Of a DNA stretch of 64,000 bases, positions 96 through 63,912 are shown one piece after another. The stretch comes from a virus, in IMG/VR virus record IMGVR_UViG_3300037483_001012, positions 1-64,000 of that record, one strand, 5' to 3'. The position numbers were made by a program, and so were the translations under genes. The notes beneath the pieces are model-generated. The model did no database searches and was not told where the DNA came from. It saw only the letters and a program-made list of their open reading frames with translations. Numbering within the stretch: position 1 is the first letter of the stretch; each line of letters starts with the position of its first letter.

Positions 96-1205
96 TTGTT
101 TTTGACCTACAAATATCGCCTGTTGCCGTCGAAGCGCCAACATAAGGCGCTTTCTGAAATCTGCGAATCGCAGCGGTTGCTCTACAACGCCGCGCTGGAG
201 GAGCGCATCGATTGCTACCGTAAAACTGGCAAGGGCCGCAGCTATTTTGACCAATGCAAGGCGCTGACGGAATGCCGTCGTGATCTTCAGGAAATCGGTG
301 CGCTGCCGCTTAGCCTTCAACGCTGGACGTTGAAGCGCCTCGACGATGCTTATGGCGCGTTTTTTCGCCGCGTTAAAGCCCACAGCGGTAAGGCCGGCTT
401 CCCCCGCTTCCGCGGCAAGGGGTGGTGGGAGAGTTTCGGCTTTGCCGAGTTTCGCGGCATCCGGTTTAACGGCAAGCGGCTGCGCTTCAAGGGAATGCCG
501 AGCGGCCTCAAGGTTCATCTGCATAGGCCGATGCCTGCCGGCACTTCCATCCGGTCCTGCGTGTTTCGCCGCGACGGGCGCGGTTGGCACGTCTGCCTGC
601 AAGTCGCGATAGAATCCCCAAAGAAGCGCGCTGTTTCGACGATGGTTGGTGTCGATCTCGGGCTCAACGTCTTTGCCTATTGCAGCGACAATGTCGTTGT
701 TCCAAATCCGCGTATCGCTCGTAAGGCCGAAAAGGAAATGCGGCGGCGTCAACGCGCGCTGGCCCGTTGCAAGCGCGGGTCGAAGCGGCGGCTGAAGGTC
801 AAGGCGCGCCTTGCCAGGCTGCATCGTAAGATCGTCGATACCCGAACGACTTGGTTGCACCAGCAATCGGCGGCGCTGGTCAACCGAGCCGACTTCATCG
901 TGGTCGAAGACCTCAACATTAAGGGAATGATCAAACACCCGACGTTGGCGCGATCTATCGCCGATGCGTCGTGGTCAAAGTTCTTGGGCTTCCTGGAGTA
1001 CAAGGCTGAAAGGGCCGGTGCTCACCTCATTAGGATCGACCCGAGAAATACGTCACAGAAATGCTCAGGCTGCGGCGAACTGGTTCCGAAGTCACTGGCG
1101 GTACGGACGCATGCGTGTCCGCATTGCGGATTGGTGATCGATAGGGACTGGAACGCCGCCAAGAACATTTTGCGGGCGGGATTGCCCGCGGGGTGGCCAA
1201 CATGA
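96..1205 (+). CDS. tnpB: TnpB RNA-guided endonuclease (IS200/IS605 superfamily); no tnpA in window
   Basis: N-terminal TYKYRLLP HTH; RuvC motifs GVDLG, VVEDL, DRDWNAAKNI all intact; zinc ribbon CSGC...CPHC. Confidence 0.93.
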   Translation: MFLTYKYRLLPSKRQHKALSEICESQRLLYNAALEERIDCYRKTGKGRSYFDQCKALTECRRDLQEIGALPLSLQRWTLKRLDDAYGAFFRRVKAHSGKAGFPRFRGKGWWESFGFAEFRGIRFNGKRLRFKGMPSGLKVHLHRPMPAGTSIRSCVFRRDGRGWHVCLQVAIESPKKRAVSTMVGVDLGLNVFAYCSDNVVVPNPRIARKAEKEMRRRQRALARCKRGSKRRLKVKARLARLHRKIVDTRTTWLHQQSAALVNRADFIVVEDLNIKGMIKHPTLARSIADASWSKFLGFLEYKAERAGAHLIRIDPRNTSQKCSGCGELVPKSLAVRTHACPHCGLVIDRDWNAAKNILRAGLPAGWPT

Positions 1206-1244: not shown

Positions 1245-2570
1245 TTAAGGGAGCCAAGTACGTAAATCCACTATGAAGGCAATCCGCTGAAGCCACTCGC
1301 GCTTGTGCGCGAGCTCGTAGCCGGCGCCGTATTTCGGCTTCTCGAAGGCATGCCCCATCAACCCATCGATCATCTCCGGCGGCGCCTCGACCGCGCGCAG
1401 CCGATCCTTGAAGGTGTGCCGGAGCGAATAGAGCGTGTGATTTTCGGTCGGCCGCAATCCGTTATTCATCAGGAATCTGTTGACCAGTCCAGAAAGCGAC
1501 GCCGACTTGTCGCGGTACCGCGGGAAGCCGGCCGGCTGCGCGCGCAGCGCGTCGAGCGCAACGCCGACGAGCGGGATGTCCCGCAACGACTCGTCGGTCT
1601 TCATCCGCCGGCCGTCCGGCCGCACCTTGACGTGCGGAACCTGGTGGTCGAGCACGATGGTGCTCTCGTTGAGATTGGCGGCCTCCGACGGGCGCAGCCC
1701 GGTCTCTGCAATGAGATAAACCAGCCGGCGGGCCTCCTGGTTGAGCCGGTCGAGCGCGCCCGGCGCCAGCATGCGGCCCTGGACGAACGCCGGCTCGTAT
1801 GCGGCGCGCGTCCCGTCCTTGGCCCCGCCGATCTGCAGGTCGGAAAATACCTCCAGCAGTTCTGAGGGCAGCCGGTAATGGCGGACCACGGTCCGAACCA
1901 TTCGCTTCAGGTGGCTGAAATCCTTGCTTGCCGTCGCCGCGTCGACGTCGCCGGCGATCACCCTGTCCTGCCACCACTTCCAAAGGTCGAGCGCATCGGC
2001 GCGCGTCAGCGCGGCCGCATCCTTGTCCCCGACCACCGAGATCAGATTGGCGATCGCGCGCTTCTTCGGATTCGCCCATTTCCGGAGTTGGTCGGGCGAG
2101 AGGTCCATCAACTCGGCCTTGGCAATGTCCCGGAAGGCGTCAAACAGGCCGCCCAGGGGTATCTCGACCCGCGGAAGCCCGCCCAGCGCCGCGGAGACCG
2201 CCGCCGGATCGTCCAGCAGGCGTCGGCTGGCCAGCGCCTCCAGGCGCGCCAGGATATCCTGTAGCGGCGCCTGCGCCAGGTCGGCGGCCGGGACATACTC
2301 GAAGCCCATCCGCCGCGCCCGGGCCCGCGCCGCATCGTAGCGCCGGCGCGCGTCGACGGCCTGGCCCTCGGCCAGGGCCAGCCAATAGGCCTCGGTCTCC
2401 CGATTGATCGCATCGACGACCTTGGCGCCGCGCACGCCCATAGGATCGTCGGCGACCTTCACGCCGGTGGATTGCTTGACGACGCCGCGCCGGTCGAGCG
2501 CTTCAAATTCAAGTGGAACCCGGCGGGCGAAATACCAGACGCCGGCGCGATTGATGAGGAATTGAGCCAC
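1245..2570 (-). CDS. int: Tyrosine recombinase (phage integrase) with DUF6538-like N-terminus; start probably GTG 2570 (ORF extends to 2636)
   Basis: ETGLRPSE (catalytic R), K in RMKT, YSLRH, LMGH...KY; N-terminal GVWYFARRVP; adjacent to attP. Confidence 0.92.
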   Translation of the reverse strand: MAQFLINRAGVWYFARRVPLEFEALDRRGVVKQSTGVKVADDPMGVRGAKVVDAINRETEAYWLALAEGQAVDARRRYDAARARARRMGFEYVPAADLAQAPLQDILARLEALASRRLLDDPAAVSAALGGLPRVEIPLGGLFDAFRDIAKAELMDLSPDQLRKWANPKKRAIANLISVVGDKDAAALTRADALDLWKWWQDRVIAGDVDAATASKDFSHLKRMVRTVVRHYRLPSELLEVFSDLQIGGAKDGTRAAYEPAFVQGRMLAPGALDRLNQEARRLVYLIAETGLRPSEAANLNESTIVLDHQVPHVKVRPDGRRMKTDESLRDIPLVGVALDALRAQPAGFPRYRDKSASLSGLVNRFLMNNGLRPTENHTLYSLRHTFKDRLRAVEAPPEMIDGLMGHAFEKPKYGAGYELAHKREWLQRIAFIVDLRTWLP

Positions 2571-2582
2571 GGTTTTGGGCCG

Positions 2583-2605
2583 ATGTTGGACAGTTTGTTG
2601 GACAG
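2583..2605 (+). repeat. Putative integrase arm-type site, left of core
   Basis: ATGTTGGACAGTTTGTTGGACAG (tandem TGTTGGACAG), identical to 2770-2792. Confidence 0.8.
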
Positions 2606-2646
2606 AAAGCCTGCATCGGCCAGTTAATATAGTCAATGATAGCAGC

Positions 2647-54706: not shown

Positions 54707-54910
54707 TTACACTAACTCGACGTTGATTGCCGACAGCCCCTTCGGCTTATCCTCGACGTCGAACTTCACCTTGTCGCCTTCGCGCACGGTGATCCCGGCC
54801 TTCTCGACCTCGCTGGTGTGAAGGAACACGTCCTTCTGGGCGTCGTCGCGCGTGATGAAGCCGTAGCCCTTGGTCGGGTTAAACCACTTTATGGTGCCTT
54901 GCATCTGCAT
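54707..54910 (-). CDS. cspA: Cold-shock domain RNA chaperone
   Basis: GTIKWFNPTKGYGFI (RNP1), DVFLH (RNP2). Confidence 0.93.
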   Translation of the reverse strand: MQMQGTIKWFNPTKGYGFITRDDAQKDVFLHTSEVEKAGITVREGDKVKFDVEDKPKGLSAINVELV

Positions 54911-55951: not shown

Positions 55952-56419
55952 CTATTCCGCCGGGATTTTCGCGATGACGCGCCGGCCCGATAAACAACGC
56001 CAGCCGAGCCTCTTCCGTCAAGGAGTTTCGCCGCCGCGCCGTTATTGCATTTTAGCTCCCAACAATTTTTTTACAGCCCATGCCGGAATATGCCTGCCTC
56101 GCGCGGTCAGTATCCAACAAGTAAAATTGTTAACGACACCCCCCATACCCCAAGCATCGTCAAGCATTCGCGTGAAATTATTCACACGTTGCGGCTTATG
56201 CTGCGTTGTCGATTGATAGGATTGATCTACTATACCTTGACCATAGTCCTATTGCGCGGCTGCTATGGAATGGTTACTTGTGTCAAGCTATGTGGAAAAA
56301 TAATTATTGAAAAATGCGTGGCGAATAGTTGACAGGCGTTGCGTCTTATGAGAGGGTATGAATGCCACGCGATTGTGGCGTGTTCGGAATAGTCCGGACG
56401 AGATATGAGGAAGCACCCA

Positions 56420-56590
56420 ATGCGCGCCATCACCACAACGGCCCTGGTCCTGCTGACACTGGCGGCCCCCGTCGTTGGCCTGCTGTATGTCGTCCCCGCT
56501 GTGAATGCGTGGGAGCTGGCGAACAACTATCCTTATGGCAAGATGTGCAATTCGATCTTTACCGCCAACGTTGACACCTGCCCCCGTTGA
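56420..56590 (+). CDS. Small membrane protein
   Basis: Hairpin plus TGAGGA upstream; one TM. Confidence 0.6.
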   Translation: MRAITTTALVLLTLAAPVVGLLYVVPAVNAWELANNYPYGKMCNSIFTANVDTCPR

Positions 56591-56685
56591 TGGCGCGCCA
56601 CGTCCTGCGCCTCTACATGGGGCGCAGTGCGGGGCACGTACCCCGTGATCGGAATGGACCGGTCATCATATGAGGAACCTAAGCC

Positions 56686-56898
56686 ATGGCTACCCTTGAC
56701 CTGCACCCCGGCGCGTACACGTCGCGCAAAGGATTCCGCCCTGTCATCCGCACCTATCGCGATGGCGTCCCGCATGGCTCTAAGGCGTCCGGCTTCCTGT
56801 TCGCCACCAGGGCCGAAGCGGAATCACATGCGCGCATTGCTGCGCTCAATGTGGCTCTGAACTACAACGGCGCGTCCCTTCACGTCGCTGTGCACTAG
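56686..56898 (+). CDS. Hypothetical protein
   Basis: Hairpin plus TGAGGA upstream. Confidence 0.7.
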   Translation: MATLDLHPGAYTSRKGFRPVIRTYRDGVPHGSKASGFLFATRAEAESHARIAALNVALNYNGASLHVAVH

Positions 56899-56908
56899 GG
56901 CGCGCGCC

Positions 56909-57022
56909 ATGGTCCGCACCATCATCCGTGAGGCCGCCTTTGTCGGGACCTGCCTTGTCGTCGGCACGGTCCTAAGCGGGGTGGGCTTATTGGCTTACCT
57001 GCTGGTGGATTGGCGATTCTAG
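56909..57022 (+). CDS. 37-aa membrane peptide
   Basis: MVRTIIREAAFVGTCLVVGTVLSGVGLLAYLLVDWRF fills the gap between genes. Confidence 0.45.
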   Translation: MVRTIIREAAFVGTCLVVGTVLSGVGLLAYLLVDWRF

Positions 57023-57121
57023 GCGTGCATCGCGTCCTGCCGTCTCGTCACGGGGCGGCAGTGCAGGGTGCAGCTACCCTCCCCGCTGGAATCGACCGCC
57101 GGGGCAAATCGAGGAAAAGAC

Positions 57122-57724
57122 ATGCCACAAGGCCGCGTTGAGAAAGTTGATTTTACCTCTGGCGGTGCCGGGAACCAATGGACCACGATTGACGGCGTGA
57201 GGTACGCCACATGGTGGGGTATCAAGACGAAGAATTGGCGCACGGGCGATCTGGTGACATTCGAAGTTTACAGCGCCCCGCTTTGGAGTGGCATGACGCC
57301 AATCGCTTGCGCCAAAAATATCAGCAAGGCCGAAAGCCAAAATATCATCCGCGCCAAGTTGATCGAGGCCCGCGCTCTTATTGCAGACCGTTCTAACTGG
57401 TGCATGGGAATGCACGCCAGCGACCGCGACGGAAATGCCGTCTATCACAATGAACCGAACGCCAAATGCTTTTGCGCCGATGGCGCGCTAGGCAAGGTCT
57501 GTGGCGTCGAAATAAGCCCCGCCGGGGATTGGCAAAACAACCCTCTCTATAATTCGGTACGAAGCGTCGTCTGGGATGCAGCAACCCGCGAATTCGGCAA
57601 AAGCCATGTTTGCGTCAATGATGGTGAGCACCTGCCGGACGACTTCGATGACGATTCCGTTGTCGCCCGCTCACACCGCGATATTCTAACCGTTTTTGAC
57701 AAGGCGATTGAGGCAATCGCCTAG
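57122..57724 (+). CDS. Two-domain hypothetical protein (DUF6197-like C-terminal half)
   Basis: Hairpin plus GAGGA; LIEARALIAD..NW..G..A.D...FCADGAL. Confidence 0.7.
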   Translation: MPQGRVEKVDFTSGGAGNQWTTIDGVRYATWWGIKTKNWRTGDLVTFEVYSAPLWSGMTPIACAKNISKAESQNIIRAKLIEARALIADRSNWCMGMHASDRDGNAVYHNEPNAKCFCADGALGKVCGVEISPAGDWQNNPLYNSVRSVVWDAATREFGKSHVCVNDGEHLPDDFDDDSVVARSHRDILTVFDKAIEAIA

Positions 57725-57955
57725 CGCGCGCCGCGACGTGCGCCGGGTCCGCCCGGCGCATATCAGGGCGCGGCTACGTCTGGCCTAAGCCTCAGTGCGG
57801 CGCTACCAGTGGGTAGCGTGCGGCACGGGCGACGATGCAGGGGCAAACCGGACCGGGCGGGATTCCCGGAATGGACTCCCTGATGACGGGCAGGCAATCC
57901 CGCCGCGACAACCCTACCGCCCGGAATGGTCCGGGCGGGACATGAGGAACGAACT

Positions 57956-58084
57956 ATGAAACCCGCGATATTGCCCAATCCTTTCGACGATCTCGCCGCG
58001 CCGGCCAAGCGCAAGGCCAAGCGAAGGAAGCCCGCCCGCAAGCCGGCGACGCGCCGCAAGGTGGCCACACGCCGCAAGCGATAG
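57956..58084 (+). CDS. 42-aa Arg/Lys-rich peptide, below the ORF-track cutoff
   Basis: Hairpin plus TGAGGA; MKPAILPNPFDDLAAPAKRKAKRRKPARKPATRRKVATRRKR. Confidence 0.65.
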   Translation: MKPAILPNPFDDLAAPAKRKAKRRKPARKPATRRKVATRRKR

Positions 58085-58192
58085 GCGCGCGCCGCGTTGT
58101 GCAGCTCGTCGACAGACGGGCTGCATAGCAGGGCGCGGCCTAGGCCAGCTCTACCGTTCGGAATAGTCCGGACGGGTATCGAGGATCGTAAC

Positions 58193-58375
58193 ATGCTCTA
58201 TGCAAACGTCCGCGTTGCGCGCGCCGCAACCGGCCTCTGGTCCGCCTTCGGGTCATGGGTCGGCGGCTCCTTTCATGTGCTTGGCTGCCTGTCGGATACC
58301 GAGGCCCGCGCCTTCGCGCGTGGCCGGTGCCTGGCCATCGGACGCGCGCCCCGCTACATCGGGGGTTCGCGATGA
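58193..58375 (+). CDS. Hypothetical protein
   Basis: Hairpin plus GAGGA; followed by two ATGA-coupled mini-ORFs (58372-58461, 58458-58535). Confidence 0.6.
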   Translation: MLYANVRVARAATGLWSAFGSWVGGSFHVLGCLSDTEARAFARGRCLAIGRAPRYIGGSR

Positions 58376-58624
58376 AACGCAAACCCATCGCCTATGTCCG
58401 GCGCCGCACCCGAAAATTCGTGCGGACCGACAAGCGCGCGTTTCTGGAGTCGTGCCAATGATTAGCACCCCCGAGGCCATCGCCCTTGTCGTCCTGGCGC
58501 TTGTCTTGCTATGGCAGGCGTTCAGGCCAGCGTGACGTTGCGAAGCGGGGCGGCAGGTTCGCCCCGTCACGGAACGCCAAGCCGTCCCTTGCTGGAATTG
58601 TCCGGCACGAATTGAGGAATCGAT

Positions 58625-59533
58625 ATGAACATGATGGTAGGCCCGGAAGCCATGACGGCGGCCGCTCTTTCGTCCCGCGCAATGCTGGCGCGCCTGAAAA
58701 TCTGCACTTGGTCGGCGACCAAACTTGACCGCAAGGTAACCGACAAGGTGAATACGGAACACCATGCCGCGCATGACGCCGGGCGCTATAACAAGCGCCT
58801 GCTTTCCAAAAGCGCAACGGCGGTCTTGACGCGGGTTTGCAGCGAGGCGCGCGCCGCGCACTACGCCCGCACCCTGCCCTGGCAGGATGACGGCGTGCGC
58901 ATTCTTTCGGCCGCCGCGTATATGGAATACGCGGAAAAAATGGCCGGGCTGCGCTCTCAATTCGATGCGGCGGCCGACTCCTTCGCGATAGGCTATGCCG
59001 AATTCGTGATTGATGAACGCGCGCGGCTTAACGGCATGTTCAATGCCGACGACTACCCGCCGGCGGAGATCATCCGCAACCGCTTTACCTTTGACGTGAA
59101 AATCGATGTGATGCCGGACGCGTCCGACTTCCGGGTCGACTTGGGCGAGGCGCAAGCGGCGGAGATCCGCGCCGATATCGAGGCGCGGACCAAACAAGCC
59201 TTGGCCGACGCGATGCGCGACGTATGGGAACGCGTTGCGGAAAGCGTTGGCCACATGGCGGACCGGCTGAAAAACTACCGCCCGGCGGAAACCAAAGGCG
59301 ACAAGTCGCAAGGCATTTTCCGCGATTCGCTGGTGGAGAATATCCGCGATCTCGTCGCCGTGCTGCCCGGCCTCAACGTCACGGGCGACCCGCGGCTTGC
59401 CGCCGTCGCGGACCGCCTGCCCGCGTTGTGCCGCGACGACGCGGCGACGTTGCGCGACGACGCCACGGCGCGCGCCAGCGTGGCGGCGGAAGCCGACGCG
59501 ATCTTAAAAGACGTATCGGAATATCTGGCCTAA
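58625..59533 (+). CDS. DUF3150-like protein (partner of the AAA/VWA module)
   Basis: WSATKLDRK...HYARTLPW.D.G.RIL...LNGMFNADDYP...IFRDSLVEN. Confidence 0.75.
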   Translation: MNMMVGPEAMTAAALSSRAMLARLKICTWSATKLDRKVTDKVNTEHHAAHDAGRYNKRLLSKSATAVLTRVCSEARAAHYARTLPWQDDGVRILSAAAYMEYAEKMAGLRSQFDAAADSFAIGYAEFVIDERARLNGMFNADDYPPAEIIRNRFTFDVKIDVMPDASDFRVDLGEAQAAEIRADIEARTKQALADAMRDVWERVAESVGHMADRLKNYRPAETKGDKSQGIFRDSLVENIRDLVAVLPGLNVTGDPRLAAVADRLPALCRDDAATLRDDATARASVAAEADAILKDVSEYLA

Positions 59534-59629
59534 GTGCATTCCGGCTAGGCGCGGCGGTAACGCCGCGCCCTTCCCGAGCGCATAACGCCCGCCGCGCGGA
59601 ATGGCCCGCACGGATTTGAGGAAACCGCT

Positions 59630-60643
59630 ATGAACCTGATTCAAGCATCCGCCGCACTCAATGCCTACATGGCGGCAAACGTGCCAACGTTCCTTTGGGG
59701 CGCGCCCGGCATCGGCAAGTCCGATCTGACGCGCGACGTGGCTAAGGCGAACGATATGCCGCTAATCGACGTGCGCGCAATCTTGCTCGATCCCGTCGAC
59801 CTTCGCGGGCTGCCCACCGTGACCGATGGCCGCGCGACCTGGGCGCAACCGGATTTCTTGCCGCGCGCGGACCGGGACGGCCCTAAGGGCATTCTGTTGC
59901 TTGATGAATTGAACGCCGCGCCCGCGTCGGTGCAAGCCGCACTTTTCCAACTGATTCTTGACCGCAAGCTAGGCGAATACACCTTGCCGCCGGACTGGCG
60001 CATTGTCGCGGCCGGTAACCGCCAAAGCGATCGCGCGGCGGCGCAGCGAATGCCGTCCGCCCTGGCCAATCGCTTCGCGCATATCGACGTTGACGCCGAC
60101 GTGACCGCCTGGGGCAAATGGGCGGCGGCGAACAATATCGCGCCGATGGTGCTGGCGTTCATCCGTTTTCGTCCCGCCCTGCTGCACGCCATGGAAGGAA
60201 GCGATTTGCGCGCGTTCCCGACACCGCGCGCATGGGCAACCGTTGCCCGACTCCCGCAAGTCCAGACAGTCGGCACGGCGGACCGGGACGCGGACGCGTT
60301 CCGGCTGGCCCTGGTCGGCGGCGTCGTCGGCGAAGCGGCGGCGGCGGAACTGGAAGGCTTTATACGGGTCTGGCGATCCCTGCCGACAATCGCGGATATC
60401 ATCGCGGACCCGGACGGCGTGACCGTGCCGAACGATCCGGCCACGCTCTACGCGGTTTCAACCGCGCTGGCGCGCAAGGCGGACCGCAAGACCTTTGAAC
60501 CGATCTTGCGCTTTGCCCGGCGCGCCATGGGGCAGGAATTCGGAATCCTGCTTTGCGTCGACGCGATCACGCGCGACCCGGACCTTAAAACGACGCGCGC
60601 ATTCGTTGAATGGGCGTCCGACAATCAGGACGTAACGCTATGA
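59630..60643 (+). CDS. MoxR-like AAA+ ATPase
   Basis: Walker A GAPGIGKS; Walker B LLLDELN; AAGNR; ALANRF; TPRAW. Confidence 0.92.
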   Translation: MNLIQASAALNAYMAANVPTFLWGAPGIGKSDLTRDVAKANDMPLIDVRAILLDPVDLRGLPTVTDGRATWAQPDFLPRADRDGPKGILLLDELNAAPASVQAALFQLILDRKLGEYTLPPDWRIVAAGNRQSDRAAAQRMPSALANRFAHIDVDADVTAWGKWAAANNIAPMVLAFIRFRPALLHAMEGSDLRAFPTPRAWATVARLPQVQTVGTADRDADAFRLALVGGVVGEAAAAELEGFIRVWRSLPTIADIIADPDGVTVPNDPATLYAVSTALARKADRKTFEPILRFARRAMGQEFGILLCVDAITRDPDLKTTRAFVEWASDNQDVTL

Positions 60644-61803
60644 GCCTGCCCCACAAGTTCACGCGCGCCCGCGCCGCGCTGGTCATGCGTCAGCCGTTTT
60701 TCGGAACGCTAGCGCTGCACCTCCGGGCCGAAATGACACCCGAATTTGACACGATGGCAACCGATGGCGTCCGGCTGCTGGTCAATCCGGATTTCTTGGA
60801 AACGCTTTCCGCCTCTGAGGCGGAAGGCGTGATAGCGCACGAAGTTCTACATTGTGCGTCAAAACACCATACGCGGCGCAAAGGCCGTGACGCCAAGCGC
60901 TGGAACATCGCTACGGACCTGGCGATAAACCGCGATCTGATCGCGGCCGGCTTCAAACTACCGGCCGGGGCTCTGATCGATCCCAAGTATGGCGACCTTG
61001 GCGCGGAAGCGATCTACCGCCTGTTAGAGCAAGAAGAGCAAGCCGGCGGCGGTCAATCGCAACCCGCGCCGGGACAATCCGGCGGGACCGATCCGGGCGG
61101 GTGCGGCGAAATTCTCGACGCCGCGCCAGAACACGATACGGCGGCCGTCTCGGCGGCGGAGGCAGAATGGGATACGATCACGCGGCAAGCCGTCAACGTG
61201 GCCAAGGCCCGCAACGCCGGGCAGGTCCCCGGCAATCTGGCGCGCCTTGTGGAAACCATGAACGCGCCGCGCGTCGACTGGCGCGGCGTGCTGCGCCGCT
61301 TTGTCGACGAGTCTACGTCCCGCGACTTTTCATGGATGCGACCTAACCGCCGCCACCTGTACGCGGGCCGGATCATGCCGGGCTACGTCCCGGACCGGCC
61401 GTCCCATGTCGTGGCAATGATTGACACGTCCGGGTCAATTCAGCCGGCGGACCTGGCCGCGTTCCGAACTGAGATACAGGCCGCGCTTGACGACGGCGCG
61501 GCGGACCGGGTGACCGTGGCCTATGCCGATACGGTGGTGCATGCGCATGACGAATTCGCCGCCGGGGATCTCGTTCGCATGGAAGCCAAGGGCGGCGGCG
61601 GCACGTCGTTTGCGCAGCCGTTGGCATGGGTTGCCGAGAACGTGCCGGACGTTTCGGCGGTCCTCTATATGACCGATTGCCAAGTGACCGAATGGGGCGA
61701 CCCGCCCGCGCCCGTGCTTTGGGTTGTGACCGGCGACCCGCGCACGGCGGCGCGGTGCGCAGCGCGCGCGCCGTTCGGGGAGGTAATCATTTTGGCGGAC
61801 TAG
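60640..61803 (+). CDS. DUF2201-like metallopeptidase plus VWA domain protein
   Basis: TMATDG, HEVLH (HExxH), WNIATD, MIDAS motif DTSGS, GGGGTSF, TD. Confidence 0.9.
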   Translation: MSLPHKFTRARAALVMRQPFFGTLALHLRAEMTPEFDTMATDGVRLLVNPDFLETLSASEAEGVIAHEVLHCASKHHTRRKGRDAKRWNIATDLAINRDLIAAGFKLPAGALIDPKYGDLGAEAIYRLLEQEEQAGGGQSQPAPGQSGGTDPGGCGEILDAAPEHDTAAVSAAEAEWDTITRQAVNVAKARNAGQVPGNLARLVETMNAPRVDWRGVLRRFVDESTSRDFSWMRPNRRHLYAGRIMPGYVPDRPSHVVAMIDTSGSIQPADLAAFRTEIQAALDDGAADRVTVAYADTVVHAHDEFAAGDLVRMEAKGGGGTSFAQPLAWVAENVPDVSAVLYMTDCQVTEWGDPPAPVLWVVTGDPRTAARCAARAPFGEVIILAD

Positions 61804-61876
61804 CGAACATCGAGGACGCGCCGCGCGCGCCCTCTCTCTCGTGCGGAATAGTCCGCACGTCATTGGAGGATATGGA

Positions 61877-62392
61877 ATGCTTACAAAGCATGAACTGCGC
61901 CGCGCCATGGGCGAAGCATATGGCGCTTGGTACTGGCGCACGCCGGGCCGCTTCGCACACAAGGCCGGACCGGACGGGAAAGCCGAGCGGGTCGCCTATA
62001 TCCTAAAATATCGGGCGCGTCGCGCGGAACTAAGCGCCGGGACGTTCCGGCCGGAAGTAAACGCGCGCGGCAACGTCGTTTTGCGCGATCATGATGCAGA
62101 CCGCGCGTTGCGCTTGCGCAATGCCGGCGACCGCTACGCATACGATTTTGGTCCGTGCCGGGCCTGGATTCAATTCGATACCCGACAAGATGCCATCTAC
62201 TTTGGCGTATGGGTGAACCCAGACAATCGCCAAATATTCACCTACTGCGAAGGCGACCGGATTCTAGTTACATGCCCGACGCCCGAGTCATTCCGCACCG
62301 AGTTGATCGACGCAAAAGAATTCTACGGCGCGCCGATTCCGCCACCGCTGCAAGATTTACTCGCCGATCTGGAGTCGGCCACCTGTAACTAA
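61877..62392 (+). CDS. Hypothetical protein
   Basis: Hairpin plus GGAGGA; DRYAYDF...QFDTRQDA.YFGVWVNP...TYCEGD. Confidence 0.75.
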   Translation: MLTKHELRRAMGEAYGAWYWRTPGRFAHKAGPDGKAERVAYILKYRARRAELSAGTFRPEVNARGNVVLRDHDADRALRLRNAGDRYAYDFGPCRAWIQFDTRQDAIYFGVWVNPDNRQIFTYCEGDRILVTCPTPESFRTELIDAKEFYGAPIPPPLQDLLADLESATCN

Positions 62393-62486
62393 TCGCGCGC
62401 GTCGCGGTTTGCCGCGCCATGCGCGCGGCATTCCAGGGCGCGGCCCTATGCCGGGAATGGTCCCGGCGTTCAAATGAGGAAAGCAC

Positions 62487-62879
62487 ATGCCCGATATCTC
62501 AAAGCTTGTATCAGAACTGCGCCTTGGCGACCAAGTTGATTTGGAAGGCGACAAATTTGCGGACCCGCGCCTCGACAAGCCCGCGCTCCAAAGTGAATAC
62601 CAACGCGTCGTCAGCGTTGAACGGGAAAGTACCAATTGCATCGCTGTCGCCTTCGAGGGATTCGACTTAATCGGATTCCCGCCGGACCACCGCGTTAAGG
62701 TAGCGCCATGCCAGACAACAAAAATCAGCGTTCCGAGAGCCATGAGCGCGACGCAAGCCGATCTCGCCGCGTCATTGGCCTGCTACACGTCCGACGATGA
62801 TTGGGGCGATGACCGGCGTGCGTTCCTGCAATCTGTCAGTGATCGAATCCTCTTGGATTTGATGACTGGCGAATACTAG
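62487..62879 (+). CDS. Hypothetical protein
   Basis: Hairpin plus TGAGGA. Confidence 0.75.
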   Translation: MPDISKLVSELRLGDQVDLEGDKFADPRLDKPALQSEYQRVVSVERESTNCIAVAFEGFDLIGFPPDHRVKVAPCQTTKISVPRAMSATQADLAASLACYTSDDDWGDDRRAFLQSVSDRILLDLMTGEY

Positions 62880-63004
62880 GCGGCTCGCGCCTACTCCATA
62901 AATCGTCACTCTCCTAATCGTCCGCCATAATATTTACGCAATTATAGCGGATGGTGCCAAGATCAATTCGGTTTGGAATAGTCCGGACCACATATGAGGA
63001 ACAC

Positions 63005-63241
63005 ATGTCACACAAACCCGACTTTGACATCATCGATACCGGATCGCTGGCGCTATTCACGCCAATGACGGAACGGGCAATCGATCATGCCGAGCAACAT
63101 CTTGCCGACGCCATGACGCACGGCCTCAGCTACGTTGTGGAGCGCCGCTACGCCCTCGATATCGTCAACGACCTGATGAACGAGCATGGCTTTACCGTCA
63201 TGATCGACGGTCGCGAACTGGCGTCCATCTCGCCCGTCTAG
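63005..63241 (+). CDS. Hypothetical protein
   Basis: Hairpin plus TGAGGA. Confidence 0.75.
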   Translation: MSHKPDFDIIDTGSLALFTPMTERAIDHAEQHLADAMTHGLSYVVERRYALDIVNDLMNEHGFTVMIDGRELASISPV

Positions 63242-63283
63242 CTTTCACGTTCGGAATGGTCCGAACAGCGCATGAGGAAACCA

Positions 63284-63877
63284 ATGGCAACCACATTTGT
63301 TCTCGATCTTTCCCATCCCGAGCATGGCACCCAAGAAACTCAGGTGACCATCGCTGCCGATGGCGGCTTCCATATGCATTATGAGGACGATATCGCGCCG
63401 CAGGCGCGTAAGAATGTCGCCTCTCGCTTTGTCGATTACGAAAGCTTCGGTTCAGGTTCCGCCTATGCGGATCGTCTCGAAGAGGTCGGCGACGTATTCA
63501 AGATCACCGGCATAGCATTCGTGGACGTGCCGGCACGGCCCGACATTCGCTTCGCGGTGCGCGGCAACTACTCCACCGATGAACAGGGCGATTGGTCCGA
63601 CTGGATCATGGCGAGCGATAAAGAGCGCGCCGAATTTCTGGCGCGGTGGACGATGGCGGAGAACGAACGCGCCGACCCGTCCAGCGAACATGACTTCCAA
63701 ATCACCATGGAAGAGATCGAGATCAAGGAATGCTACCCGGAGCCGTTCACCAAAGACGAACTGGCAAAATTCGTGGGAACGATTGCGCGGATGATCCCGA
63801 CCGAGGACGGGGACGATTCAATCGCAACCGTCAATCGTTTGATCGAGGACGCCCGCAAGCTTCTCGGGGTCGTGTAA
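63284..63877 (+). CDS. Hypothetical acidic protein
   Basis: Hairpin plus TGAGGA; D/E-rich. Confidence 0.75.
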   Translation: MATTFVLDLSHPEHGTQETQVTIAADGGFHMHYEDDIAPQARKNVASRFVDYESFGSGSAYADRLEEVGDVFKITGIAFVDVPARPDIRFAVRGNYSTDEQGDWSDWIMASDKERAEFLARWTMAENERADPSSEHDFQITMEEIEIKECYPEPFTKDELAKFVGTIARMIPTEDGDDSIATVNRLIEDARKLLGVV

Positions 63878-63912
63878 CCCGCGCGGAATAGCCCGCGCAC
63901 GTATAGGAGATC

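Follow-up and report, generated by a model that had tools for sequence, protein, structure and literature searches.

A small stem-loop of invariant apex stands ahead of the ribosome-binding sites of early genes in a phage genome from the IMG/VR database, and this hairpin is, at about even odds (a probability of roughly 0.5), an RNA operator, i.e., one whose loop is read by a lineage-specific factor controlling the translation or the stability of early mRNAs. The DNA in question, here called the window, is bases 1–64,000 of the 112,714-bp record IMGVR_UViG_3300037483_001012, a record estimated to be 94% complete. Over the whole of that record there are 18 copies of the hairpin, all found in one plus-strand array spanning 13.6 kb (apex starts 56,386–69,939).

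Repeated, start-associated motifs have been known from phage early regions since 2011. The case described here is cleaner than most, in that the hairpin is small, its loop and spacing are fixed while its stems are free, and there are natural swaps of specificity among relatives which nonetheless keep gene order. It lets RNA versus DNA action, the reader, and changes in the specificity of site sets and reader all be tested directly. If it is true that a compact reader–hairpin pair controls the translation of many genes, then that pair would be useful as an orthogonal part for synthetic control of expression.

The Hairpin Array

A preliminary description, made from the letters of the window, listed 12 hairpins, and all 12 are found at their coordinates and with their sequences (Table 1), with the array reaching 18 copies past the window's end. 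The apex, GGAATNGNCC, had been described as an invariant GGAATNG.CC, and indeed it is invariant in 18/18 array copies. Within the window this apex occurs 15 times versus an expected 3.1 +/- 1.8 (0/100 shuffles reach 15), with 12 of those 15 matches lying on the plus strand at 56,386–63,894. One-mismatch variants of the apex are not enriched, i.e., there are 50 on the plus strand and 54 on the minus, and the apex thus is sharply defined.

In the complete record the apex is seen 21 times in forward and 3 times in reverse orientation, the six matches outside of the array representing the background level. The orientation bias that had been claimed thereby stands as a matter of counts. One full copy is located inside of a coding sequence at 95,861. 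That copy is a full GGAATAGTCC hairpin within a RecT-like coding region (record 95,853–95,878), with a perfect 4-bp extension of its stem, a covariance-model score of 25.9 bits, and no Shine-Dalgarno sequence (SD) at the usual distance.

Copies within the array all are found in non-coding leaders and on the sense strand of what is a single, co-directional early array. In every one of the 18, the SD (GAGGA, GGAGG, AGGAG or GGGAG) starts 19–23 nt past the first conserved G, which is in keeping with the 20–23 nt originally given for 12 copies. The start codon follows 28–35 nt after that same G, and 3–9 nt separate the 3' end of the hairpin from the SD. Hairpin 18 and its SD precede, at the usual distance, an in-frame CTG of a DUF4942 methyltransferase gene, and it is probably at this CTG (record 69969) that the methyltransferase starts, the first ATG, GTG or TTG being 27 nt further on. 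Genes joined to the gene before them by ATGA overlaps, at 58372, 58458 and 60640 (the last being the DUF2201/VWA gene, which overlaps the AAA ATPase gene), are without a hairpin, just as had been noted.

Covarying Stems, Fixed Loop

Pairing was assessed using an ungapped alignment of the 18 copies (alignment A1), with a 9-pair stem and with statistics taken beyond the GG/CC core. The fraction of stem cells that are paired is 83.3% versus 67.0 +/- 2.0% in shuffles, a value which 0/500 of the latter reach, though with all 18 copies being paralogues of one genome these shuffle statistics overstate independence. Pairing falls to 31–42% upon sliding of the 3' partners, double-change cells number 24 versus 8.6 expected, and the covariation score is 0.425 versus 0.138. 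The outer stem, that is, does change freely while staying paired, as had been proposed, but the 3' arm itself is partly conserved (CCG-S-A-C-G), and in three cases this sacrifices a pair, leaving C-A where the conserved A stands. Stems are 7–9 bp long, loops are 4–6 nt, and there are at least ten different stems among the 18 copies. Given such variety, a selected hairpin is the only reasonable reading. The hairpin also is present in the minimum-free-energy fold of 10/10 native intergenic contexts that were folded, within which the SD for the most part stays free of pairing.

Covariation of the stem goes together with an invariant loop, which is the opposite of neutral drift under a purely structural constraint, and the sequence of the loop itself therefore is selected. 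Loop position 4 varies (A7, G7, C2, T2), and since it does so freely a protein would fit better as reader than would a single antisense RNA.

Same Position, Different Sequence in Relatives

No phage possessing the same apex was found in INPHARED, in IMG/VR pattern scans, among relatives, with a covariance model, or in 401 genomes of one class. Scans of IMG/VR with loose and strict patterns of hairpin plus SD returned just scattered single chance matches, while INPHARED held no DNA relative and, at the protein level, only distant cyanophages. The covariance model (R1) recovers its 18 training copies along with the in-coding-sequence copy at 95,861, and returns no further copies from the phage, none from the relative G001, and two sub-threshold-looking matches elsewhere (L225, L217). 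In the 401 genomes, sampled from the class of G008 (a Pseudovibrio assembly), the motif-plus-SD pattern gave 22 scattered matches and no cluster.

Relatives keep hairpin position and gene order, and swap the sequence. G001 is a 113,353-bp provirus whose large terminase (TerL) is 64% identical to that of this phage and whose array is syntenic, with homologues of DUF3150 (51%), AAA (40%), DUF2201 and PolIII-beta. Its motif is GGGC-N4-GCCC-T(A/C)ACC, followed after 3–7 nt by the SD, and is present on one strand at 12 or more gene starts, including those of the orthologous AAA and PolIII-beta genes, with one extra copy flipped to GCCC..GGGC. G004 is a 112,428-bp provirus with a DUF3150 protein of 56% identity and eight NNNN(N)-GATTGT-NNNN(N) hairpins, built from six different complementary stems, after which come GGAGTCCC and ATG. 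The GAUUGU hexaloop of G004 is similar to the AAUNGN loop of this phage, two copies of which are AAUUGU. L234 has eight modules of the form [TAG]-[8-9 bp hairpin]-CUCA-[GGUGC-loop-GCACC]-[GGAGAGAG], the first hairpin covarying at 8/9 pairs, and thus displays the same two-hairpin spacer layout as does this phage. Other types of pre-SD motif among relatives include GCAATCATGC, GCCCGG-catgc-CCGGGC, GGCC-N4-GGCC and more. Overall, repeated pre-SD motifs are seen in 25/63 DUF3150-bearing viral loci versus 1/63 on the opposite strand. To count as repeated, a non-SD 8-mer had to recur at least 4 times within the windows from -45 to -8 at plus-strand starts.

The trio of genes for DUF3150, a MoxR-like AAA ATPase, and a DUF2201 metallopeptidase/VWA protein (window 58625–61803) is common to 76–87 of the approximately 90 loci searched, and is the only part of the array that is shared by nearly all relatives. 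It also adjoins type IV secretion genes on Burkholderiales plasmids, and on one Paraburkholderia plasmid, where the trio is beside a type IV secretion system, there too are nested hairpins before SDs.

The fixed loop and free stem of this phage and G004, together with the replacement of site sets between relatives that keep gene order, suggest that the sites are read sequence-specifically, by a reader co-evolving with them. A loop-binding factor, or else the ribosome, had already been proposed as reader in the preliminary description; the idea of a dedicated reader gains weight from relatives keeping position while swapping sequence.

Layout among relatives bears as well on a rather unlikely alternative, which is that these hairpins are RNA ‘punctuation’ lacking any dedicated reader. 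Following endonucleolytic cleavage of the short linker between them, that is, a long hairpin found after the stop codon (see below) would guard the upstream 3' end and the short hairpin would guard the downstream 5' end; the short hairpin may in addition insulate, keeping the SD unpaired. Similarity in sequence within the genome would then result from a single expression module having been copied. A loop which is invariant while stems change, as seen both here and in G004, is not what a purely structural role would lead one to expect, and two of the copies are found 4–8 nt past the upstream stop codon without any long hairpin. Nevertheless, the order of stop codon, long variable hairpin, short hairpin and then SD recurs in this phage and in L234, the distant relatives L202 and L203 have pre-SD hairpins without a conserved loop, and in G001 and L234 it is the short stem that is constant and the loop that varies, as is expected of a purely structural constraint.

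Gene content, in turn, bears on whether the hairpin-plus-SD module could be a recombination linker, i.e., a short homology by which gene cassettes are shuffled between related phages, as has been proposed for the promoter-early-stem-loop (PeSL) cassettes of T4-type phages, with any effect on expression a by-product. What the arrays of this phage (G000), G001 and G004 have in common is limited to the DUF3150-AAA-VWA core, PolIII-beta and a methyltransferase, most of the small ORFs (open reading frames) lying between repeats being different, and the phage has genes for RecT and for a PDDEXK exonuclease. Of the module's roughly 40 positions just 8 are invariant, however, and the stems differ, leaving homology that is too short and broken for efficient recombination, while gene conversion would have made the stems uniform too. 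A linker role is considered to be very improbable.

RNA or DNA, and What Might Read It

As an RNA operator, the element would be a cis-acting hairpin of apex GG-AAUNGN-CC in the 5' leader or an intercistronic spacer of early mRNAs. A trans-acting factor, peculiar to this lineage of phages and probably encoded by the phage itself, would read its loop plus part of its 3' arm in a sequence-specific manner. A protein so placed, 3–9 nt before the SD, would occupy the region bound by the platform of the 30S subunit and thereby hinder 30S binding, in the way that ThrRS represses thrS by hindering 30S binding. One factor could then switch the translation, and hence the stability, of approximately 18 early cistrons together. 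Action as RNA, binding by a protein, and the direction of the effect all are what we infer. Precedent is provided by phage helix-turn-helix (HTH) proteins that bind 5'-untranslated-region and intercistronic hairpins and block ribosome access, as Aca2 does on acr leaders (PMC13551039). Action on RNA is favoured because coupling to the SD is tight, orientation is sense, the element is absent from translationally coupled genes, and no phage polymerase or sigma factor was found.

Another competing possibility, fairly improbable in our estimation, is of a signal in DNA, that is, either a phage promoter for an unrecognised polymerase or sigma-like factor (maybe in hairpin form and N4-like), or an oriented, stoperator-like operator at which the immunity repressor silences the array in the lysogen. 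The phage is temperate, carrying an integrase, with G001 and G004 being proviruses, and motif sets are lineage-specific, as too are T7, T3 and SP6 promoters or cluster A stoperators. The three C-A mismatches at the conserved A represent sequence being kept even at a cost to pairing, a 3–4 nt A/T-rich stretch with G-rich sequence behind it is found about 20 nt past the conserved block, hairpin stability is without strand bias, and the ESAS repeats of cluster K mycobacteriophages (discussed below) now are interpreted as promoters of the SigA-like kind that include an operator (PMC11373665). A site acting as duplex, on the other hand, leaves the compensatory changes across ten or more stems unexplained. 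The distance between motif and SD varies by 4 nt, an mRNA whose transcription started 3' of the motif would have its SD at the very 5' end, and there is no -35/-10 pattern. Nor is there the 3-nt loop and giant virion polymerase of N4-type promoters. No RNA polymerase or sigma factor was detected in the phage, with one large unassigned ORF being kinase-like: Sigma70_r2 and Sigma70_r4_2 are absent other than for a chance 11.6-bit Sigma70_r4_2 match, and the T7-type RNA_pol Pfam family gave no match, which is weak as the search's control also gave none.

Also considered and rejected were a sigma-54 promoter, an extracytoplasmic-function sigma promoter (with GGAAT as -35), a CcrM site, Chi-like sites, and mimicry of a tRNA T-arm. 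For each, a required second element is missing or else spacing and covariation go unexplained.

Several findings, in addition to the overstated independence of the copies, weigh against an RNA operator. Pairing itself gives no sign of RNA over DNA. Wobbles and strand-specific stability had been taken as pointing to RNA, which has not survived analysis: internal non-Watson–Crick stem positions consist of 10 G-U, 6 A-C and 3 other, the excess of G-U over A-C not being significant, and folding of both strands of the 26-nt element finds the plus strand more stable in 9 copies and the minus strand more stable in 9 (Wilcoxon p = 0.8). As hairpins are equally stable on either strand, the wobbles are no evidence of strand or of RNA. 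There furthermore is a resemblance to promoters of single-subunit polymerases, i.e., an approximately 20-nt conserved block with 3–4 A/T-rich nt and a G-rich start. The assertion that nearly every independently initiated gene has a hairpin holds up to about 67.6 kb but not past that point, as seven genes at 67915–69527, plus that at 71304, are started separately, with a short spacer that holds a plain SD and no hairpin. The element therefore is not needed for independent initiation as such. Lastly, no reader was identified among the phage's proteins or by way of known families of RNA-binding regulators: CsrA, ProQ/FinO, Hfq and ribosomal S21 have no match in the phage, and the HTH ORF of the array (record 71634–72236) has only sub-threshold matches to HTH_31 and HTH_3. 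That ORF does match two generic HTH/transcriptional-regulator PHROGs as well as 434-repressor-like PDB entries, a weak resemblance to the XRE type.

Other candidates for the reader include a cold-shock-domain protein encoded 1.5 kb from the array (54707–54910, minus strand; CSD, E = 2.7e-24), which was rejected as it is absent from G001–G003. Genes common to G004 but not to G001 include no convincing reader, consisting only of RecT/PDDEXK, a 73-aa ORF and a 139-aa ORF, the last (record 111493–111912, plus strand) being ASCH/PUA-like by eye and without a Pfam match. There are, in addition, small basic ORFs with a C-terminal [KR][RH]AF[LV] upstream of DUF3150 in this phage and in four relatives (window 58372–58461; G001 59895–60002; L220, L221 and L222), lineages across which the hairpins differ. 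The first of these, a 29-aa Arg-rich ORF, is a speculative candidate for the hairpin's reader; another very small, Arg/Lys-rich ORF of the array is found at 57956–58084.

A bolder, quite unlikely extension of the RNA-operator reading is that a large family of temperate phages and other mobile elements with the DUF3150-AAA-VWA genes possesses a phage-wide post-transcriptional regulon, with a fast-evolving small reader and matching pre-SD hairpins at 12 or more early genes. The reader might then be the Arg-rich KRAF(L/V) peptide of the array, used as lambda N is on boxB, and many joint changes of specificity by the reader and its hairpins would have taken place (GGAAUNGNCC, GAUUGU, GGGC..GCCC-UAACC, GGUGC..GCACC, GCAAUCAUGC).

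Spacers, Transcription and the Phage

In most spacers the stop codon is immediately followed by a long, GC-rich hairpin, i.e., one lying 5' of the GGAAT hairpin, and without a U tract. Several of these share a conserved base, GCGCGCCGCG...CAGGGCGCGGC. The array is 60% GC and contains only three AT-rich islands, each found just 5' of a hairpin, of which that at 56251–56350 is a candidate for the region holding the array's promoter, which would be of host type. Consensus scans for promoters and terminators were at chance level, with no canonical ones between array genes, and as intrinsic terminators the hairpins fail both in having no T run after them and in the terminator scan finding none at their sites. 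Given the lack of canonical promoters and terminators between genes, and just the three islands, there likely are a few long polycistronic transcripts, with hairpins both in leaders and between cistrons.

Table 1. Positions of the hairpins and of other features of the array; window and record share the same numbering.
Feature	Position	Strand	Sequence (5' arm, apex, 3' arm)	Remarks
Hairpin 1	56382–56399	+	gttc-GGAATAGTCC-ggac	SD GAGGA 56407; ATG 56420 (56-aa ORF)
Hairpin 2	56646–56665	+	tgatc-GGAATGGACC-ggtca	ATG 56686 (70-aa ORF)
Hairpin 3	57081–57104	+	ccccgct-GGAATCGACC-gccgggg	One C-C mismatch; ATG 57122 (DUF6197 protein)
Hairpin 4	57917–57938	+	ccgccc-GGAATGGTCC-gggcgg	ATG 57956 (42-aa Arg/Lys-rich peptide)
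Hairpin 5	58154–58175	+	ccgttc-GGAATAGTCC-ggacgg	ATG 58193; next two ATGA-overlapped small ORFs without hairpin
Hairpin 6	58590–58607	+	tgct-GGAATTGTCC-ggca	ATG 58625 (DUF3150 protein, 302 aa)
Hairpin 7	59592–59613	+	ccgcgc-GGAATGGCCC-gcacgg	One C-A mismatch; ATG 59630 (MoxR-like AAA ATPase)
Hairpin 8	61840–61859	+	cgtgc-GGAATAGTCC-gcacg	ATG 61877
Hairpin 9	62449–62468	+	tgccg-GGAATGGTCC-cggcg	ATG 62487
Hairpin 10	62970–62989	+	ggttt-GGAATAGTCC-ggacc	ATG 63005; AT-rich island 5' of hairpin
Hairpin 11	63249–63266	+	gttc-GGAATGGTCC-gaac	8 nt past upstream stop codon; ATG 63284
Hairpin 12	63881–63898	+	gcgc-GGAATAGCCC-gcgc	4 nt past upstream stop codon; ATG 63913
Six copies past the window	64098, 64328, 65630, 67044, 67520, 69939	+		Apex starts, record
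Second element, best example	58082–58142	+		Long GC-rich post-stop hairpin; z = -6.8 for 58082–58197
Other long post-stop hairpins	~56597–56636, 57022–57075, 57722–57776, 58533–58579, 59548–59569, 62394–62427	+		
AT-rich island 1	56251–56350	+		GC 0.33, just 5' of hairpin 1; no strict sigma-70 consensus
AT-rich island 2	62921–62980			
AT-rich island 3	65601–65680			Record
29-aa Arg-rich ORF	58372–58461	+		Ends ..DKRAFLESCQ

Genes for the large terminase, the prohead protease, the tape measure protein, and a lambda-J-like tip protein are found on the minus strand of the phage. Other genes are those for the integrase, for DnaB and a C5-methylase, both with inteins, and for a primase, an SNF2 helicase, a PolIII-beta clamp and RecT/PDDEXK. 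With structural, integration and replication genes such as these, the phage is, as judged from gene content, a temperate siphovirus (i.e., tailed). The largest ORFs are those of the tape measure (1434 aa), a 1341-aa protein, and gpJ. The nearest homologues of the DUF3150 protein are found in Hyphomicrobiales, making an alphaproteobacterial host likely. The closest relatives of the DUF3150 protein (63–65% identity) are on Logan contigs.

An IS605 OrfB/TnpB-like gene with a Cas12f-like TNB domain adjoins the integrase at the record's left end (window 96–1205, plus strand, and 1245–2636, minus strand). The DnaB helicase and C5 cytosine methyltransferase each have one intein with a LAGLIDADG homing-endonuclease domain (record 73590–76016 and 80150–82528, both minus strand). 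A 575-aa ORF (record 105970–107697, plus strand) falls among protein-kinase-like clusters of phages (protein atlas score 0.99).

Comparison with Known Systems

Rfam release 15 gave no match across the whole window at gathering thresholds, and at E <= 10 over 56,001–70,500 there were 5 chance-level matches, none at a hairpin. The earlier view that this is not a described family is upheld to that extent.

Targets of CsrA/RsmA have one GGA in the loop of a hairpin and a second at the SD. Two GGA about 21 nt apart are present here, though the first is paired in the predicted stem and the phage is without a csrA gene. The T4 RegA regulon is similar to the regulon proposed here, in that a single factor represses translation of many early mRNAs near the initiation region. 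RegA sites are unstructured and AU-rich and overlap the start codon, and no RegA-like gene was identified in the phage. Promoters of the N4 type consist of a 5–7 bp stem and a 3-nt loop used by a giant virion RNA polymerase, versus the 4–6 nt loop seen here. Cluster A stoperators and the conserved inverted repeats of phiC31 are alike with the present array in having many oriented, phage-specific copies in the short intergenic spaces of the lytic operons of temperate phages. Those repeats are duplex repressor sites of conserved sequence, without compensatory pairing, found in early as well as late operons, and at no fixed distance from the SD. Orientation bias fits with stoperators, whereas a single 13.6-kb array and compensatory stems do not.

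The boxB–N systems of lambda and P22 likewise involve a short hairpin with a sequence-specific loop and a specificity which differs between related phages. There an arginine-rich peptide reads the loop, with the Arg-rich ORFs here being only candidates for such a role. A genome has just one or two boxB, each part of a nut site along with boxA, and boxB acts on the transcribing polymerase rather than being found beside every SD; at the 18 sites here nothing 5' of the left arm is conserved, and hence no boxA-like sequence. The RNA motifs of Aca1 and Aca2 also are phage hairpins found in 5' untranslated regions and between genes of early, anti-defence-type operons, with an HTH protein binding and blocking the ribosome-binding site (PMC13551039). 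They number one to a few per locus, however, with a stem resembling the DNA operator of the protein, versus the 18 sites of the array, where stems are free and the loop is fixed. Aca2 is a DUF1870 HTH protein encoded in the operon that has its hairpin, and the only HTH protein of the array, with its weak XRE/434-type matches, matches no Aca family.

The closest known analogue is found in the SAS (start-associated sequences) and ESAS (their extended form) of cluster K mycobacteriophages (PMC3203893, PMC11373665). As with the array described here, these are present as 11–19 oriented copies per genome, only in the non-structural arm, at or just before the ribosome-binding sites of genes having sizeable intergenic gaps, with conservation in excess of what pairing with rRNA needs, and with subcluster-specific variants. 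The SAS, 13 bp long and unstructured, includes the SD, whereas here a covarying, fixed-loop hairpin is separate from the SD, and in a proteobacterial-type phage. A search for the SAS itself (GGGATAGGAGCCC, which stands 3–9 bp before start codons) gave 0 matches in the window with up to 2 mismatches allowed. The ESAS consists of paired, 17-bp imperfect inverted repeats of conserved sequence, without compensatory changes and with SigA-like -35/-10 hexamers. Its arms, not covarying (PMC3203893, PMC11373665), are read as DNA, i.e., as promoter and operator, while here stems vary and covary, with no sigma-70-like hexamer pair at the hairpins. The element has no Rfam match and is a new variant of SAS/ESAS-like start-associated repeats.

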